Positions 1 through 63,471 of a DNA stretch of 64,000 nucleotides are shown piece by piece. Made by a program: the position numbers and the translations under genes. The DNA is from a virus: IMG/VR virus record IMGVR_UViG_3300045988_065571. One strand, given 5' to 3'. Below the pieces are notes generated by a model. It was not told the origin of the DNA, searched no databases, and worked only from the letters and a program-made list of their open reading frames with translations. The number at the start of each line of letters is the position of its first letter. The stretch's first letter is position 1.

Positions 1-36
1 TATTGGAATAAGGAATATTGGAATAAGGAATACTGA
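1..36 (+). repeat. Perfect 15-bp tandem duplication (tattggaataaggaa x2) that runs into TGA at 34-36. In frame it reads YWNKE-YWNKE-Y-stop, so it is probably the 3' end of a CDS cut by the window edge.
   Basis: Direct reading: bases 1-15 are identical to 16-30, and frame 1 is open until the TGA at 34-36. Confidence 0.4.
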
Positions 37-204
37 TATAAGAATCAATCAGGAAAAGGGATTGTTAAGGGAAAAACAAAGCCAGTTTCGTAACTGATTG
101 AATTTGAATTAGTTGGCTTATGCCAGACTTGGCAAATGAATGCCAAGCACCTGATATAGAGTGAGTTGACTATTATGAATTGAAACCGAAAAACTCAAGT
201 AACA

Positions 205-7265: not shown

Positions 7266-7301
7266 CCCCGAACAGTTTCAATCCATTCTGTTCGGGGTTT
7301 T
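7266..7301 (+). terminator. Rho-independent terminator after the capsid gene
   Basis: Perfect 10-bp stem, ccccgaacag (7266-7275) with ctgttcgggg (7288-7297), followed by TTTT. Confidence 0.8.
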
Positions 7302-18507: not shown

Positions 18508-18531
18508 TTTCTATTAAAGTTGATTAGGGAA

Positions 18532-18566
18532 AAGGGAGGTACCTGTAGTGGGTATTTCCCTTTTTT
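18532..18566 (+). terminator. Rho-independent terminator
   Basis: 12-bp stem, aagggaggtacc (18532-18543) with ggtatttccctt (18551-18562), including two G-U pairs. Followed by a T-run. Confidence 0.65.
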
Positions 18567-18587
18567 CGTTTTAATCTAGTAAGAAAC

Positions 18588-21918: not shown

Positions 21919-21927
21919 TTTTCTAAT

Positions 21928-21960
21928 AATACCAGTAAGGTAACGATACTTACTGGTATT
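21928..21960 (+). terminator. Perfect 12-bp hairpin upstream of the sheath gene; terminator or attenuator candidate
   Basis: aataccagtaag (21928-21939) pairs with cttactggtatt (21949-21960) across a 9-nt loop. The downstream sequence is A/T-rich but has no clean T-run. Confidence 0.45.
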
Positions 21961-21996
21961 AATTAAATTAATGTATAACCTATAAAACACAAGGAT

Positions 21997-24239: not shown

Positions 24240-24275
24240 TTCTCTTAGTCATTTTCTTACTAGAGTTTTAGGTGG

Positions 24276-24318
24276 AGGGGTGGGATTCCTAGATAAGGAG
24301 TTTCACCCCTTTCTTGTT
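24276..24318 (+). terminator. Terminator candidate after the tube gene
   Basis: aggggtg (24276-24282) pairs with cacccct (24304-24310), followed by ttcttgtt. Confidence 0.4.
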
Positions 24319-25149: not shown

Positions 25150-25292
25150 AGGAAGATTACATATACATTACTCGGGCTGAGATAGTCTTAGACTATCTCA
25201 CCTTTTTGTGTCTACCCGTTCGTAAAAGAAAGAAATTCCTACTCATAGCTGAGAATTATTATAAACAAATGAAGAAGAAAATGTCAACATGA
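24367..25292 (+). CDS. Tail assembly chaperone, -1 frameshift-extended isoform (analogue of lambda G-T / P2 E-E')
   Basis: After the slip at 25119-25125, the -1 frame encodes LLDGRYNLEEDYIYITRAEIVLDYLTFLCLPVRKRKKFLLIAENYYKQMKKKMST-stop. This fills the otherwise non-coding 140-nt gap and ends on the ATGA that starts the tape measure gene. Confidence 0.5.
25119..25125 (+). promoter_or_regulatory. Slippery heptamer T_TTT_TTC for a programmed -1 ribosomal frameshift
   Basis: The zero frame reads gaT TTT TTC tac. The -1 frame is open from here to the TGA at 25290-25292. Confidence 0.55.
25178..25207 (+). terminator. Hairpin plus T-run inside the frameshift extension; attenuator or terminator candidate
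   Basis: Perfect 10-bp stem, tgagatagtc (25178-25187) with gactatctca (25191-25200), 3-nt loop, then ccTTTTT. Confidence 0.5.
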
Positions 25293-37955: not shown

Positions 37956-38063
37956 CCTTATATAAACTTTTAAAATTATTAGGGCTTTTATATTTAAAGA
38001 ACAGCTAATCGCTTTCGTCCAACACACAAGTGGAATTCTTATTGGGAAATAAGTTACACTGGA

Positions 38064-38096
38064 AAGGGAACCTCATGCACTGGGTTCCCTTTTTTA
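38064..38096. terminator. Intrinsic terminator at the convergent junction between the late operon and the minus-strand gene
   Basis: aagggaacc (38064-38072) pairs with ggttccctt (38083-38091), followed by a T-run ending at 38095. The minus-strand gene stops at 38099. Confidence 0.7.
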
Positions 38097-38098
38097 TG

Positions 38099-38758
38099 TT
38101 AGTAATGTAAGTCTTCTTTAGCTTTCTCTTCCCAATATCTTATATCTTCTTTAAGTTCTGAGATATATCTTACCGAAGATTTAGTTCTAGGCATATCAAA
38201 AAACTCTACTAATAAAATGTTAGTGATACGAGAACCATCCTTGATTCTCTCTTTAATATAGGGAGGAGGACTAAGCAATATCTCGAAGATCAAATAAGCA
38301 TCGGGAGATAGGTTCTTCTTCATATATTTATATAACATATCAAGCATTTCTCCTTTAGCTTTCTCTTCTTCTGTATCATCTTCTAGTTCTTTATCATTAT
38401 CGAATAAATCTTCTAATTGGTAAAGATTCTGATGATATTCTGCTCCCTCTCCATAAGCAGTTCTTAATAAATGATTCTTAAAGGTACTGAGAGAAGCTAG
38501 TATCCTTGCTTTTAAATGTTCTTCTTCACAAGTACCGTAATATTTATTAAAGACAAATAACATCTTATCCCAGAAATAAGAACTTATGATATCGGGTGTA
38601 ACATTAAACCTCCTATTATCAATTTGCTTAGTAAGACGTCTGATAACTGGTTTACAGATTTTATACATCCTATCAAAAGTTTCCTTATCATAATTTTCTT
38701 GCATAGGCTTCAACCTATGTATCTCTGATCCGTTGTTGCCATTTTCTTTTATCTTCAT
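38099..38758 (-). CDS. ECF-like sigma factor candidate (sigma-70 regions 2 and 4)
   Basis: FDRMYKICKPVIRRLTKQIDNRRFNVTPDIISSYFWDKMLFVFNKYYG...LKARILASLSTFKNHLLR fits the region 2 pattern. LSPDAYLIFEILL...ILLVEFFDMPRTKSSVRYISELKEDIRYW fits a region 4 HTH. This is the only credible minus-strand gene in the window. Confidence 0.45.
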   Translation of the reverse strand: MKIKENGNNGSEIHRLKPMQENYDKETFDRMYKICKPVIRRLTKQIDNRRFNVTPDIISSYFWDKMLFVFNKYYGTCEEEHLKARILASLSTFKNHLLRTAYGEGAEYHQNLYQLEDLFDNDKELEDDTEEEKAKGEMLDMLYKYMKKNLSPDAYLIFEILLSPPPYIKERIKDGSRITNILLVEFFDMPRTKSSVRYISELKEDIRYWEEKAKEDLHY

Positions 38759-58572: not shown

Positions 58573-60278
58573 CATTTACAAGGTTAAATATACAGGGATT
58601 CTGTTCTATAGATTCCTTCAGTTTACAATTAAACCAAGATTGTACGGTTCTTATCAAAGCTCCTAATGGTTTTGGGAAATCAACTTTACTGAATGCCTTG
58701 GTATGGGCATTATATGGGAAAAATATAAAGGGAGTATCTGAGGTAAATACTTGGAAAGAATACCAACCTAAAGATTATAAGGGAACCATGGTAGAAGTAT
58801 TTTTTCAGAAAAACCAAGATTCCTATAAGGTAATCAGATGTCAAAAATTCAAAGATTACCTAGAGGATGGTGCTAAGGGAAATGATAGACTCATAATCAT
58901 TAAAAATGCCGAGATTATTAATATCAAGGGTAAGAATGAATTACAGAATGCCATCAATAAAGAACTAGGATTATCCTATCTGTTATTCATGAACTCAATT
59001 ATGTTCGGTCAGGGTATTAAGAGATTAATCCAAGAATCTAATTCGGATAAGAAAAAGCTTTTTGAGGAAGTATTCGATTTAGAATACCTAAATTTAGCAA
59101 AGGGTATAGCTAATCAAGATAAGGCAGTTATCTTAAATGAGATTAATCAATTAGAATCCGAATCTCTTTCACTAAAGAAAGAATTAGAGGCCAATAAAGA
59201 AGCTTACTTCGATTTGAGGTCAAGGGAGAAATCCTTTAAGAAAGATCTCAGAGAAAAATCTAGGAAACTAAAGGAAGAACGGAAAGACCTAACTGCGTTA
59301 CTTATTGCAAAACAAAAACATATTTCAGATGAAGTAGATGTAGCAATAGAACAAAAGGTAAGAAATCAAACCAAAGCAGTACAAGAGATAAAGAATCGAA
59401 TTAAGATAAACAAGGAAACTCTAAGTACTCCCTTAAATGAACTGGTGGATGAGTCCATAGAATTAATAAAGAATAAACAATATAAGAAAGCCTTGAAAAT
59501 GCTTACTCCCATCAGTAAAGCATTTAAAGAAAGGGAGGAACTTCAAAGCTTATATGAAGAATCCGTAGAGAGATTAGATGAACTAGAATTTAACTGCAGT
59601 AAGTATAAGACTCTAGTTAAAGAATGTTCCGATATTGCTTCAGATTTGGCAGATATAGACCAGGAAATAAAAGACCTTAAGAATCAGAAACTAAAGGTAA
59701 TGTCTACTAAATACAAAGAAAGGTTGAAAAAGATTCGTAGGGATTTAAGAAAGGTAGATGAAGATTACCATAACCGAGAACTAGAGTTAGAGAATTATAA
59801 TTGGTTGATAAATGACCCTCTTGGTAACAATGGGATCAAGGCATATCTATTTGATTCATCCCTACATTTATTAAATCGTACTCTAGCTAGTTACTCGGAA
59901 GTATTAGGTTTTAGAATTGAGTTTAATATAGACCTTAATTCAACTAGAAAGGATTTTGTTACCCTTATAGAAAGAGATAATCACATTATTGATTATGACG
60001 AACTATCAGGAGGTGAAAAACAAGTATGTAATCTATGTATGGCTTTCGCAATGCATGAAGCTTTGACTGCAAGTAAGGGTATTAACCTAGCATTCCTAGA
60101 TGAAGTATTTGAATCCCTAAGTTCTGATAACATAGAATTGGTAATAAACCTAATAAAACATATATTCAACGGTAAATCATTATTTTTAATAACACATCAC
60201 GACTCGTTACCTTTATCAAATACTAAGATCCTGCAAGTAGAGAAAATCAAGGGCCTTAGTTATTATAAACCACTATGA
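58566..60278 (+). CDS. sbcC: Rad50/SbcC-type ATPase
   Basis: Walker A APNGFGKSTLLNAL, long central coiled coil, signature LSGGEKQ, Walker B LAFLDEVFESL. Confidence 0.9.
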   Translation: MLTFTRLNIQGFCSIDSFSLQLNQDCTVLIKAPNGFGKSTLLNALVWALYGKNIKGVSEVNTWKEYQPKDYKGTMVEVFFQKNQDSYKVIRCQKFKDYLEDGAKGNDRLIIIKNAEIINIKGKNELQNAINKELGLSYLLFMNSIMFGQGIKRLIQESNSDKKKLFEEVFDLEYLNLAKGIANQDKAVILNEINQLESESLSLKKELEANKEAYFDLRSREKSFKKDLREKSRKLKEERKDLTALLIAKQKHISDEVDVAIEQKVRNQTKAVQEIKNRIKINKETLSTPLNELVDESIELIKNKQYKKALKMLTPISKAFKEREELQSLYEESVERLDELEFNCSKYKTLVKECSDIASDLADIDQEIKDLKNQKLKVMSTKYKERLKKIRRDLRKVDEDYHNRELELENYNWLINDPLGNNGIKAYLFDSSLHLLNRTLASYSEVLGFRIEFNIDLNSTRKDFVTLIERDNHIIDYDELSGGEKQVCNLCMAFAMHEALTASKGINLAFLDEVFESLSSDNIELVINLIKHIFNGKSLFLITHHDSLPLSNTKILQVEKIKGLSYYKPL

Positions 60279-60817
60279 TCCATAAACAATACAATGAAAT
60301 TATGGCAAATAGTAAAAAGAAAGGTAATCGATTTGAACTCAAAGTCTCAAAATGGTTTACGGAATGGACTTCTTTCAAATTCGGCAGAACACCCTACTCT
60401 GGTGCAAATCATCAGAGTAGGGATTTGTCTTCTGATATTATGTGTCAGGATGAAAGACATGCTCACAGATGTAAAATCTCAGTAGAATGTAAAAACTACA
60501 AGGATATCAAATTTGAGCATGTATTACTTGGTAATAAATCCTGTGATATATTAAAATTCTGGGAACAAGCAAGTAAAGATGCTAAAAGGGTAAAGAAGGT
60601 ACCCATCTTATGTATGAGATACAATTCAATGCCTGCAAATGAGTTTTTCTTTGTAGTAGATTATAAACTCGGTAGTATTATAGCTCAGTACATTACTAAG
60701 TCCATGTATATTCAAGTTCCCGGTAATACTCTTATGGTATTCATGGCTAGTGAGGTATTAAAAGTACCATACAAGATGATTCACAAACAAGCTAAGTTAA
60801 TCGTAAAAAACTCATAA
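60275..60817 (+). CDS. PD-(D/E)XK nuclease; Holliday-junction-resolvase-like
   Basis: KKKGNRFELKVSKWFTEW...GRTPYSGAN...DLSSDIMC...KISVECKNYKD matches the E ... D ... E.K layout of Hjc-like phage resolvases. Confidence 0.5.
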   Translation: MIHKQYNEIMANSKKKGNRFELKVSKWFTEWTSFKFGRTPYSGANHQSRDLSSDIMCQDERHAHRCKISVECKNYKDIKFEHVLLGNKSCDILKFWEQASKDAKRVKKVPILCMRYNSMPANEFFFVVDYKLGSIIAQYITKSMYIQVPGNTLMVFMASEVLKVPYKMIHKQAKLIVKNS

Positions 60818-60818
60818 T

Positions 60819-61535
60819 ATGAAAAAACGTATCCCATACTCCTATGTAATCTTCTACCTAGAAAGAAAGTATTATCACCTTATCGAGAAAGAGTTAAAAG
60901 AAAAGGGATACGAAAATATCAAGGTTATTATCCCTACTCTGGATATACTTAAGAGAACCGTAAAGGGTAAGATGGTATTTGAATCTGTTCCTATACTTTT
61001 CAATTATGGTTTTATGAGAATGCCTACAGAGAATGCTTTCTCAAGGCCTTTTTTAAATAAACTAAAACGAAATATCTCAGGTATAAGAACCTTTCTTAAA
61101 TCTACTGAAACAATGCACGAAAGAAAAAAGAAGGTACGTATAGATAATGCTGAAGACTTCGATGATTTTTCATTAGTTGCAACTTGTTCTAGAAAAGATG
61201 TAAGAAGGTTCATAAGATTAGCAAAAGCAAATAAAAAATACTCTGTTGATGACCTTATGAATGTAAAACCAGGAGATTATATCGTTTTAAAAGGGTATCC
61301 CTATGAAGGTATAGATGCTACAGTATTAGACGTAAATTACTCTAATAGAACAGTAAAAGTACTAATCTACCCAGAACATGGTAAAATGGAAGTAACTCTT
61401 GATTTTGACAGTGTTCTTTACAGTGTATATCAGGATTCAGACCCCGATAAATTACATTGTAATAACTTTGACTATGACCCAAATTCTATTACTTCTGAAA
61501 AGATAGAAGAGAACATTAATAAAAGGAGGCGTTAA
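60819..61535 (+). CDS. NusG / RfaH / UpxY-like transcription elongation (antitermination) factor
   Basis: NGN-like N-terminus YVIFYLERKYYHLIEKELKEKGYENIKVIIPTLDILKRTVKGKMVFESVPILFNYGFMRMP. KOW-like VKPGDYIVLKGYPYEGIDATVLDVNYSNRTVKVLIYPEHGKMEVTLDFDSV. Confidence 0.55.
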   Translation: MKKRIPYSYVIFYLERKYYHLIEKELKEKGYENIKVIIPTLDILKRTVKGKMVFESVPILFNYGFMRMPTENAFSRPFLNKLKRNISGIRTFLKSTETMHERKKKVRIDNAEDFDDFSLVATCSRKDVRRFIRLAKANKKYSVDDLMNVKPGDYIVLKGYPYEGIDATVLDVNYSNRTVKVLIYPEHGKMEVTLDFDSVLYSVYQDSDPDKLHCNNFDYDPNSITSEKIEENINKRRR

Positions 61536-61536
61536 T

Positions 61537-62508
61537 ATGAATAAATACCAAAAGAAAGCATGGGACTGTTTGACTCCAACCGAGCAGCAGTCCCTTTTTC
61601 TTCAGTTATCAGAGAGTAAATCCTCTTGGGAAGCTGGAGAGATATTAAAATTATCTCATTATAAGTACCTAGAAATAAAAGAAAGATCCGAAAAGTTCTT
61701 TCGATTATTCTCGGATTTCTTTGAAATACATGAGTCAATATTCAGACCAGATTGCCCATGTGAAAGAAACTTCCAAGATTATATCGAGGCTTGCATAGAA
61801 AAAAGGATGAAAAGAAAAGAGGCTCTACTAAATACTGGAGATGCCTCTCAATTAGTTCCTAAGGTAAATACTCGTAATCTAGAAAGAAATATAAGAAGAC
61901 TACAAGGTTCAGATAATGAATGGGATAAACATTCTCTAGGTTTGATATTAGAATTCGATAGATGGAATAATTTTAGGATATTACCCAGGCAAGTACAGCA
62001 ACCATCTGCTTTCAAAAGAAGAGCTAACAAGAAAGAAAAGATTTATATCAACTACTTATTGGAGAAAGTACCAGAATGGGTTCATACTAAACTAAGAGAA
62101 AGGTTTAAGTATAAAGTAAAACCCAGTATAAAGAAATGGTGGGTATGTTTAATATCTGAAGATTTATATACGGATGGATATTTATTACTTCCTGTAAGAC
62201 CAACAGATGAGGTAATGAGGGAATTCAGTAAATTCTATATGTATATATTCGAGGATAAGGATGATGCAGATACATTTGGATTCATGGTATCTAAATTCAA
62301 TGCCAAGACCACTACTGTAAAACTAGGTCAGAAGTTTTGGCCAGAATATAGATTATGTATCGAAAAGGCTTTGAATTACAACAAGGTAAATAACATGGAT
62401 TTTAATGTGAAGCAATTAGATATGGCTTATAACACTCACATAAAACGAAAACCTAAAAAGAAACCCCAACCAGGAGCTGCTAGAGTGAAAGAAGACTCCT
62501 TCTATTGA
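61537..62508 (+). CDS. HTH (sigma-70 region 4 / LuxR-like) N-terminal domain protein; putative transcription regulator
   Basis: LTPTEQQSLFLQLSESKSSWEAGEILKLSHYKYLEIKERSEKFF fits Lp..e..v..l......s..EIa..l..s...v......a...l. Starts 2 nt after the NusG-like gene. Confidence 0.4.
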   Translation: MNKYQKKAWDCLTPTEQQSLFLQLSESKSSWEAGEILKLSHYKYLEIKERSEKFFRLFSDFFEIHESIFRPDCPCERNFQDYIEACIEKRMKRKEALLNTGDASQLVPKVNTRNLERNIRRLQGSDNEWDKHSLGLILEFDRWNNFRILPRQVQQPSAFKRRANKKEKIYINYLLEKVPEWVHTKLRERFKYKVKPSIKKWWVCLISEDLYTDGYLLLPVRPTDEVMREFSKFYMYIFEDKDDADTFGFMVSKFNAKTTTVKLGQKFWPEYRLCIEKALNYNKVNNMDFNVKQLDMAYNTHIKRKPKKKPQPGAARVKEDSFY

Positions 62509-62565
62509 TCCTCAGCTAATATTAAAATAATAAGTAGAATATTTTTATATATAATATATAAGTAT

Positions 62566-62573
62566 TATATTTG
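62566..62573 (+). promoter_or_regulatory. Bacteroidota-type -7 promoter box (TAnnTTTG) inside a very AT-rich spacer
   Basis: The plus strand reads aTTATATTTGCATcag. It shares the 12-mer TTATATTTGCAT with the minus-strand box at 38782-38789. Lies 40 nt upstream of the ATG at 62613. Confidence 0.45.
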
Positions 62574-62612
62574 CATCAGAAAAGAAAATTAGACAATTTT
62601 AATATAGACAAT

Positions 62613-62895: not shown

Positions 62896-63471
62896 ATGGC
62901 AAAGAAGAAAAAAGATAAACCAGCTCCATCAAGGGAAAAACAAAATTTCCTAGGAGCTGCCGGTAGAAACATGAAGTACAAGGATCTCAAAAGAAAGGCA
63001 GTAATCCTTGGTATGCCTTTTCCTGATGCTTGTGCTGCAGGAGTATTTGATTTAATCAAGTATATCAGTAACTCAACCAACAAACCTGATAAATCTCTAA
63101 TTGACCAGTACGATGAATGGGCAGATAAACAATTGGAAGCAATCGGTTATGATAAAACTGACCCAATCCGTAATTCAAGATTAAGATTAGGATTCTTAGG
63201 AGAAGAGGGGGAAGATGGTATTCGAAAATTAAAAAGAGTACCAGGTATAAAGAAACCAAAAGAAAAGAAACCTCCAAGAGAAAGAGATTCTTTTAACCTT
63301 ATTAAGGGTACTAAGAAATCCTACTGTTATGAATTAACAGAAAAGGGATTTGACCAAGAGAGAGTAGTAAGGAGAATGAAAAAGAAATTCCCTGATGCTA
63401 ATGAGAAATCCATTCAACTCTGGTACAGGGCTGCAAAAAGGAAATTAAATGGTAAAGCTAGCAAGGGATAA
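62896..63471 (+). CDS. Highly basic hypothetical protein (191 aa)
   Basis: MAKKKKDKPAPSREKQ..., and KRVPGIKKPKEKKPPRERD. Possibly binds nucleic acid, judged from composition only. Confidence 0.45.
   Translation: MAKKKKDKPAPSREKQNFLGAAGRNMKYKDLKRKAVILGMPFPDACAAGVFDLIKYISNSTNKPDKSLIDQYDEWADKQLEAIGYDKTDPIRNSRLRLGFLGEEGEDGIRKLKRVPGIKKPKEKKPPRERDSFNLIKGTKKSYCYELTEKGFDQERVVRRMKKKFPDANEKSIQLWYRAAKRKLNGKASKG

Follow-up and report, generated by a model that had tools for sequence, protein, structure and literature searches.

A phage-borne NusG-superfamily paralogue and its conserved partner gene at the end of a replication module: identity, context and possible role in antitermination

What would a phage do with a NusG paralogue of its own? 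The question is raised by two adjacent open reading frames (ORFs) in a 64,000-nt stretch of viral DNA (IMG/VR record IMGVR_UViG_3300045988_065571; hereafter the window), which covers part of a phage genome of ~85 kb with nearly all genes on the plus strand. Both ORFs lie on that strand: ORF A (60819-61535, stop codon at 61533-61535) encodes a protein of 238 aa and ORF B (61537-62508, ATG at 61537) its conserved partner of 323 aa. A previous sequence-only reading had placed the two genes at these positions, where both indeed exist, and had taken ORF A for a NusG/UpxY-like elongation factor serving the late operon. We find that ORF A is a member of the NusG/Spt5 superfamily, with an NGN and a KOW domain, and within it a specialised paralogue (NusG-SP).

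As a single sequence, ORF A gave nothing credible in a Pfam scan, and its identity was established at the level of its family. The family has 222 close homologues, and an exhaustive search recovered 199 representatives at 50% identity, nearly all of ~230 aa. We then took as divergent set the 44 full-length members that are 22-45% identical to the window protein and compared each with NCBIfam. UpxY was matched by 29 members (best 1e-10), LoaP by 14 (best 1e-8), NusG by 12, RfaH by 10 and Spt5 by 7; only two families beyond the NusG type appeared in the scan, with one member each. UpxY proteins are thus the closest described relatives, in agreement with the sequence-only reading. The PHROG 6386 family, named ‘transcription antiterminator’, was matched by 17 of the 44, with a best E of 1.6e-10.

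The same answer was obtained against structures. When the family profile was run against the PDB, 30 of the 31 distinct sequences matched were NusG, Spt5, RfaH or the KOW protein uL24; the best KOW match, to NusG, was at E 8.8e-5, and residues 2-64 of RfaH were matched by the NGN part (residues 6-73) at E 0.003. A profile alignment of the ORF A family with Escherichia coli RfaH by hhalign (E 7e-6) extended over 129 columns, spanned both domains and placed PLFPNYLFV of RfaH on the family-invariant VPLLFNYGF of ORF A. The RfaH query is the same protein as the PDB RfaH chains matched by the family profile. An AlphaFold2 (AF2) model of ORF A has a mean predicted local distance difference test (pLDDT) of 66, with 10-residue blocks of the N-domain at 68-92. 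The N-domain has the topology b-a-b-b-b-b-a-a-b, that of NGN, and is followed by a small C-terminal barrel. All 34 matches at E<=1e-3 in a PDB fold search with this model were NusG, RfaH or Spt5, and superposition of the NGN domain only on RfaH (8pen_P) gave a template modelling (TM) score of 0.76 with a root-mean-square deviation (rmsd) of 2.9 Å. The NGN-like N-terminus and KOW-like motif which had been read from the letters are therefore both recovered by topology, fold matches and profiles. Two other assignments were discarded: a beta-lactamase match (phmmer against the PDB, E 0.01) is spurious, since family profiles consistently give NusG KOW domains at this place, and the NCBI third-party annotation label ‘RNA polymerase subunit alpha’ on a 73%-identical relative is backed by none of the searches.

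The domain limits could be drawn in some detail. The NGN core occupies residues 1-97 (60819-61109, plus strand), as delimited by model confidence (pLDDT 68-92), the hhalign alignment to RfaH and conserved columns. Its b2-b3 hairpin, IIPTLDILKRTVKGKMVFESVP, is basic, short and of the RfaH/UpxY type, and its strand P58-x-L-F-N-Y-G-F65 (consensus VP(I/L)LFNYGF) is invariant in the family. The hydrophobic LFNYGF of this strand, aligned with LFPNYLF of RfaH, is the candidate surface for contact with the clamp helices of RNA polymerase. The KOW domain, residues 148-200 (61260-61418, plus strand), aligns with NusG and Spt5 KOW domains, has the KOW pattern G-x-x-V/I...G-x-F-x-G and carries the motif KPGDYIVLKGYPYEGIDATVLDV at residues 150-172, with G152, Y160, P161 and G164 conserved. 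Its net charge is -3, against a family median of 0. It was modelled as a beta-barrel at pLDDT 65-75; this is a single AF2 model and is compatible with a second state.

Two segments set ORF A apart. Residues 98-122 (61110-61184, plus strand; TMHERKKKVRIDNAEDFDDFSLVAT) form an insertion of 21-25 residues in the NGN domain, before helix alpha-3, which is missing from RfaH. It includes the conserved RIDNAEDFDDFS, and R107, N110, D115, D116, F117 and S118 are invariant among close relatives. Among these relatives it is the most conserved segment of ORF A, yet it was modelled at pLDDT <50, and this combination of high conservation and low model confidence suggests a putative partner-binding segment. 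Across the wider family the insertion varies in length from 8 to 44 residues. The second segment, the C-terminal tail of 38 residues (201-238; 61419-61532, plus strand), has no counterpart in NusG or RfaH; Y201, Y204 and D208 are conserved and an acidic stretch precedes a terminal helix.

ORF B starts immediately downstream. A single base (61536) separates the ORF A stop from the ORF B ATG, so that the tight coupling noticed from the letters is real. A single base likewise separates ORF A from the gene to its left, which encodes a PDDEXK_15/RusA-like nuclease (60275-60817, plus strand); to the right of ORF B lies a lysine-rich protein of 191 aa (62896-63471, plus strand). This order, PDDEXK nuclease, NusG-like protein, ORF B and lysine-rich protein of ~190 aa, is kept in 5/5 relatives, that is, in all fetched loci which reach past the NusG-like gene, whose product is there 27-72% identical to ORF A. 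In these five relatives the NusG-like stop and the ORF B start abut or overlap. Conservation of the coupling down to 27% identity argues for a functional pair.

The ORF B protein has >850 homologues, none of them named, and its model is confident (pLDDT 85). Residues 1-64 (61537-61728, plus strand) form, by fold matches, a sigma-region-4-like/LuxR-like helix-turn-helix (HTH) head of four helices, whose best PDB matches are SigD4 (3vfz), SigL4 (3hug) and SigA4 (6onu, 4g8x). Superposition on sigma region 4 gave TM 0.58-0.76 and rmsd 1.4-3.1 Å over 51-62 columns, with a whole-chain E of ~1. The likeness to sigma-70 region 4 proposed from the sequence thus stands for these residues at the level of fold and has no counterpart in sequence profiles: no credible Pfam or NCBIfam match was found, isolated N-terminal fragments included (E<=5). 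Residues 65-323 matched no known fold in structure searches and appear, as modelled, to be a new fold; in a viral structure library the sole significant match of ORF B was an uncharacterised homologue. An invariant motif, EFDRWNNFRILP...QQPSAFKRR, lies at residues 139-162. ORF B was considered and rejected as a sigma factor, for it has no region 2, its HTH is N-terminal and no Sigma70_r2/r4 profile matches it. Its identity with UpxZ was rejected as well (no profile match). Designed helical repeat proteins matched by an ORF B-family profile (A2) were set aside as low-complexity helical matches, and a UPF0203 match (E 2e-4, below cut-off) was dismissed.

The identical ORF A protein occurs in >21,000 assembly blocks, and a scan of bacterial genomes for integrated copies returned only phage contigs mis-binned into metagenome-assembled genomes (MAGs) and one 598-bp contaminant. 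The mis-binning is apparent from whole phage contigs in several MAGs of unrelated genera. The 598-bp contig, NZ_BMUY01000103.1, comes from a Streptomyces tendae assembly and encodes ORF A residues 1-157 at 100% identity; it is almost certainly gut-phage DNA contamination. In one assembly (ENA contig, 2151 bp) the PDDEXK nuclease and the NusG-like protein were called as one fused product of 404 aa. Such a fusion, which could be real or an assembly error, would arise if one base were gained or lost at the 1-nt junction. We also observed a perfect hairpin with a 13-bp stem at 60392-60422, inside the nuclease gene and ~400 nt upstream of ORF A, followed by ATTTGTCTTC; it folds with an energy of -27.1 kcal/mol (z = -6.2 relative to shuffles). 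L009, a relative of 52% identity, has a comparable hairpin at much the same position, but the most distant relatives do not clearly have one.

ORF A and ORF B are the last two genes of a replication, nucleotide and recombination module (38935-62508, plus strand), which includes a DnaB-like helicase, a superfamily 2 helicase, a family A DNA polymerase, RecA, a flap endonuclease, SbcD, SbcC and the PDDEXK/RusA-like nuclease. Packaging and virion genes form the late block (440-37955, plus strand), among them those for a TerL-like protein (1087), for a capsid protein (6112) and for a fibre of 2026 aa with an S74 chaperone domain; this block is preceded by a muramidase gene, a DNA methylase gene and a gap of ~250 bp. 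The proposal that ORF A is a factor dedicated to the late operon was not borne out: nothing ties it to that operon in particular, and the pair closes the replication/recombination operon. Between the two blocks lies the lone credible minus-strand gene (38099-38758, minus strand; >=90 aa). It has zero Pfam, NCBIfam or PDB sequence matches, and its reading as an extracytoplasmic function sigma factor was rejected as being without sequence support from these three databases.

Does the late block contain obstacles to transcription? The five hairpins named in the sequence-only reading are present and end where it placed them, and a sixth closes the block of ~38 kb. On the plus strand they are a terminator-like hairpin 3′ of the major capsid gene (7266-7297; CCCCGAACAG...CTGTTCGGGG TTTTAT), one of 19 pairs followed by a T-run (18527-18567), a 13-pair stem with a weak A/T tail (21927-21961), a terminator-like hairpin of 17 pairs (24274-24312) and one of 10 pairs followed by CCTTTTTG (25178-25200); the sixth is a bidirectional terminator (38061-38094, both strands). 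Totals of terminator patterns are not above those of shuffled sequence (15 vs 10.8 +/- 3.4; 13 vs 10.1 +/- 3.7). The long-stem hairpins are placed exactly in intergenic gaps.

We then looked for promoters of the Bacteroidota host type, defined by a -7 box TAnnTTTG, often with TTTG ~20 nt upstream. Such -7 boxes are rare in the intergenic gaps of the window (401, 7248, 52649, 62566). Two of them, 401 and 7248, belong to the late block and none follows a terminator. Because no host-type promoter follows the internal late terminators, most late genes would need read-through, or else promoters of a type that was not recognised by this sequence search. Downstream of ORF B lie short units, which also end in classic terminators (~65.8, ~67.0 and ~69.8 kb).

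A strong promoter cassette stands directly 3′ of ORF B (62508-62576, plus strand). It consists of a ATCCTCAGCT box at 62508-62517, which overlaps the ORF B stop codon and is centred ~65 nt upstream of the expected start, and then of a -33/-7 promoter extended to TTTGCAT, with the Bacteroidota-type -7 box TATATTTG(CAT) at 62566-62576 (TATATTTGCAT at 62566). The cassette recurs on the minus strand at 38848-38778, where it lies upstream of 38758 and drives the lone minus-strand gene, and at ~67.9 and ~69.2 kb (L001 17083-17162 and 18379-18450). A -7-type promoter after ORF B is also found in 3/4 relatives readable past ORF B, and the ATCCTCAGCT box itself is present in close relatives only. A phage HTH protein could use this box as its operator.

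The leader of the late operon is poorly conserved in relatives, and no conserved leader structure was found there. In it a 15-mer, TATTGGAATAAGGAA, is repeated in tandem in three copies (L012 7547-7591; window 1-30, the window starting inside the array), and a cluster of small hairpins (window 89-148) follows in the gap that separates the DNA methylase gene from the late block. Elsewhere in the DNA examined the 15-mer unit is not found, and nothing links either the 15-mers or the small hairpins to ORF A. The first late ORF carries at its start a 41-nt island, CTAGGATTTACTATTTACCTTTGCTTCAGGAATTACAAACT (497-537, equal to L012 8058-8098), identical at all positions in 16 of 17 aligned loci and at 40 of 41 in the other. 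Its upstream flanks are of several unrelated types across the 17 loci, its downstream flanks ~70% identical. It is single in the window, and at least 110 viral contigs have one exact copy each of its 32-nt core. The island contains TACCTTTG, a TAnnTTTG-type box. Standing at the head of the late block, it is a genuine element at the level of DNA or RNA and could be a module-boundary recombination site, a packaging (pac) signal or an embedded promoter or loading site; no connection with ORF A was found.

The proteins scanned include no recognisable RNA polymerase or sigma factor of the phage's own, and the phage therefore appears dependent on host RNA polymerase. The phage group that it most resembles is ‘Flandersviridae’, as judged from genome size and layout, promoter type and the description in the literature. 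The host is probably a member of the Bacteroidota, on the basis of the promoter type and of the hosts of Flandersviridae (PMC8008677). The end of ORF A contains, 7 nt ahead of the ORF B start, a strong Shine-Dalgarno-like sequence, AGGAGG (61516-61536). Shine-Dalgarno sites are reputedly little used in Bacteroidota, and this one is unusual for a phage with Bacteroidota-type promoters.

How might the pair work? We favour, as somewhat probable, that ORF A is an antitermination factor promoting read-through of phage gene arrays, with ORF B as its conserved partner. The NGN domain would bind host (Bacteroidota) RNA polymerase on its clamp helices, at the site used by host NusG and UpxY. Elongation complexes would thereby become resistant to pausing and termination, and long, co-directional arrays punctuated by terminators could be read through. 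As a product of the 3′-terminal part of the replication (middle) operon, ORF A would act from mid-infection on; plausible targets would be the block of late virion genes and, downstream of the pair, the small-gene units with their terminators. ORF B, through its sigma-4-like head, most likely provides targeting to DNA or RNA polymerase, or controls ORF A. Binding to RNA polymerase, the sign of the effect, the targets and any contact between ORF A and ORF B are inferences, the first three drawn from the behaviour of characterised paralogues (PMC7819879, PMC11685472).

A number of observations weigh against antitermination by ORF A. Its single-sequence matches are marginal: PHROG 6386 was found at E 0.008 and NCBIfam UpxY (NF033644) at E 8.6e-4, both over nearly full length, the latter with 19.3 bits where the cut-off is 100. 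Confidence in the model is no more than moderate (mean pLDDT 66), and the insertion that is most conserved (residues 98-117) is left unmodelled. The ops-like recruitment element suggested in the sequence-only reading did not materialise: the window contains 0 matches to opsX (YGCGNAGCR), and the ops element GGCGGTAGnnTG has 15 matches at <=2 mismatches, none exact, vs 13.6 +/- 3.5 expected. The pair lies ~22 kb upstream of the late operon with small promoter-terminator units between, and so does not occupy a slot like that of lambda Q; nor does ORF A adjoin or lead an obvious target operon, as upxY, loaP and taA do. Terminators after capsid genes are moreover common in phages without a dedicated antiterminator. 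Finally, NusG of Bacillus subtilis and of Mycobacterium tuberculosis stimulates pausing and termination, and because some NusG proteins do so the sign of the ORF A effect is unreadable from its fold.

This last point leads to the opposite activity, in which ORF A would strengthen hairpin-dependent pausing or termination as those two NusG proteins do, enforcing terminators between small early units or setting capsid-to-tail stoichiometry. The pair is directly followed by units that terminators delimit, UpxY proteins of class 2 are pro-pausing (PMC11685472), and NusG can itself serve as a factor of intrinsic termination (PMC8060035). We nevertheless regard this activity as improbable: the characterised NusG-SPs (RfaH, UpxY, LoaP, TaA) all promote read-through and expression of their long operons (PMC7819879, PMC11685472), and members of the ORF A family match antiterminator-annotated models and PHROGs, although these labels are homology-based. 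Equally improbable, in our estimate, is a role in host take-over, where ORF A would compete with host NusG or UpxY, or titrate UpxZ-like inhibitors, and shut down or reprogram host transcription, for instance of the capsule operons governing phage susceptibility in Bacteroides, rather than act on phage operons. That UpxY is the closest family, that the host is probably Bacteroidota (promoter type; PMC8008677) and that UpxY-UpxZ adjacency (PMC11685472) is formally like that of ORF A and ORF B would fit such a role, but ORF B has no detectable similarity to known families, UpxZ included, the phage window lacks a host opsX-type motif, and expression together with replication genes is late for a take-over function. 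A general anti-silencing activity seems rather unlikely, if less so than these two. Here ORF A, at the NusG site but without sequence-specific loading, would exclude host NusG and block Rho termination genome-wide, in a manner resembling the NusG exclusion of RfaH without ops. Consistent with it are the missing ops/opsX sites in the window, the poorly conserved late leader, the position of the ORF A gene next to no specific target, and a non-basic KOW (-3) and divergent C-tail, which would fit if the usual NusG partners had been lost; that Rho silences foreign DNA is itself established (PMC7819879). The conserved HTH partner suggests some targeting instead, and the proposal is a variant of antitermination by ORF A rather than its true opposite.

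The part played by ORF B can be questioned separately. It might be an independent regulator that represses or activates, for example, the early promoters with the ATCCTCAGCT box and is simply co-expressed with ORF A; its HTH head, the cassette that begins at its own stop codon and the recurrence of the box at other cassettes are in keeping with this. Adjacency and translational coupling conserved down to 27% identity speak for a partnership, however, and the box is confined to close relatives, so that we consider independence possible but the less probable assignment. At the other extreme, the two proteins could form a loading module: the ORF B head would dock on promoter-proximal DNA or on the polymerase flap and load ORF A at initiation or early elongation, with the ATCCTCAGCT cassette box and the invariant 41-nt island as candidate docking sites. 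This is a speculative extension to which we give little weight. If it were true, it would amount to a Q-like mechanism built from a NusG fold, letting polymerase read a co-directional genome of ~85 kb through a dozen terminators, and to a new, protein-guided recruitment of a NusG paralogue instead of recruitment by ops DNA or leader RNA.

To our knowledge, NusG is the sole transcription factor conserved in all cellular life, and its characterised paralogues are all chromosomal or plasmid-borne. The specialised paralogues RfaH, UpxY and LoaP are models for the escape of long or foreign operons from termination. The NusG branch described here is a distinct one, fixed in a phage group that ranks among the most prevalent of the human gut, and it is always accompanied by a partner which is mostly of no known fold. 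If the pair modifies Bacteroides RNA polymerase, it would explain the timing of a one-directional genome of ~85 kb without recognisable polymerase or sigma factor. It would in that case also add a protein-assisted way of controlling a NusG paralogue, testable with the published recombinant B. fragilis RNA polymerase system (PMC11685472). Should the pair have no such role, a correct but unremarkable annotation remains.

In a literature search we found no paper studying a phage-encoded NusG paralogue. The paper defining ‘Flandersviridae’ makes no mention of NusG, antitermination or sigma, phage-encoded copies are unmentioned in surveys of NusG paralogues, and one paper annotates a NusG-like gene in Helicobacter pylori prophages, no more. 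Comparison was thus made with the characterised systems. RfaH of Enterobacteria (PDB 2oug, 8pen, 8phk) gives the best single NGN superposition (8pen_P), its PLFPNYLFV strand is kept in ORF A, and it acts in trans on distant operons, as ORF A would have to. It differs in that ORF A has the insertion, the C-tail and a partner gene, and no ops site above chance in the window; the KOW domain of RfaH switches between an alpha-helical autoinhibited state and a beta barrel, and that of ORF A was modelled as a beta barrel.

Likeness to UpxY, the NusG paralogue of Bacteroides capsule operons, was also examined. Both are two-domain NGN-KOW proteins, UpxY being the best-matching family for the majority of the divergent relatives given above (29/44), and the b2-b3 hairpin of ORF A, ~20 residues long and basic, starts with (I/L)PT and ends with VP as in class-1 UpxY (PMC11685472). 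Both also have a tightly coupled second gene and a probable host phylum, Bacteroidota, in common. On the other hand ORF A has the insertion of 21-25 residues in NGN and the 38-residue C-tail and is phage-borne, and its gene is penultimate in a replication operon, while upxY is the first gene after a leader with the opsX pause site, made up of the ntDNA hairpin YGCGNAGCR and a pause hairpin. The KOW domain of class-2 UpxY is basic (PMC11685472), that of ORF A slightly acidic (-3). By the curated cut-off and these hallmarks of context, ORF A is not a member of the UpxY family. The upxZ product inhibits non-cognate UpxY. UpxY and UpxZ are encoded by adjacent genes and Z binds the NGN of Y (PMC11685472); ORF B, with 323 aa and a sigma-4-like head, is not UpxZ-like.

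LoaP, a NusG paralogue of Firmicutes whose model is matched by 14/44 of the relatives, is a processive antiterminator of long operons. Its KOW is strongly basic, and a hairpin in the leader RNA has been proposed as its ligand, unlike the KOW of ORF A with its net charge of -3. The Q and N proteins of phage lambda have the same proposed job, to make host RNA polymerase read through terminators and so time expression, but their folds are unrelated, the fold matches of ORF A being all of the NusG family, and the ORF A gene lies outside the Q slot. Phage-encoded like ORF A are the ‘transcription antiterminator’ families PHROG 6386, which ORF A relatives match, and PHROG 25909; the antiterminator names in PHROG and at the Joint Genome Institute (JGI), whose pipeline calls the identical protein ‘transcription antitermination factor NusG’, are homology-derived database labels. 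With this name and these families already in existence, the bare annotation is not new. What is new is a phage-borne branch of NusG-SPs with its own insertion, its own tail and an obligate partner.

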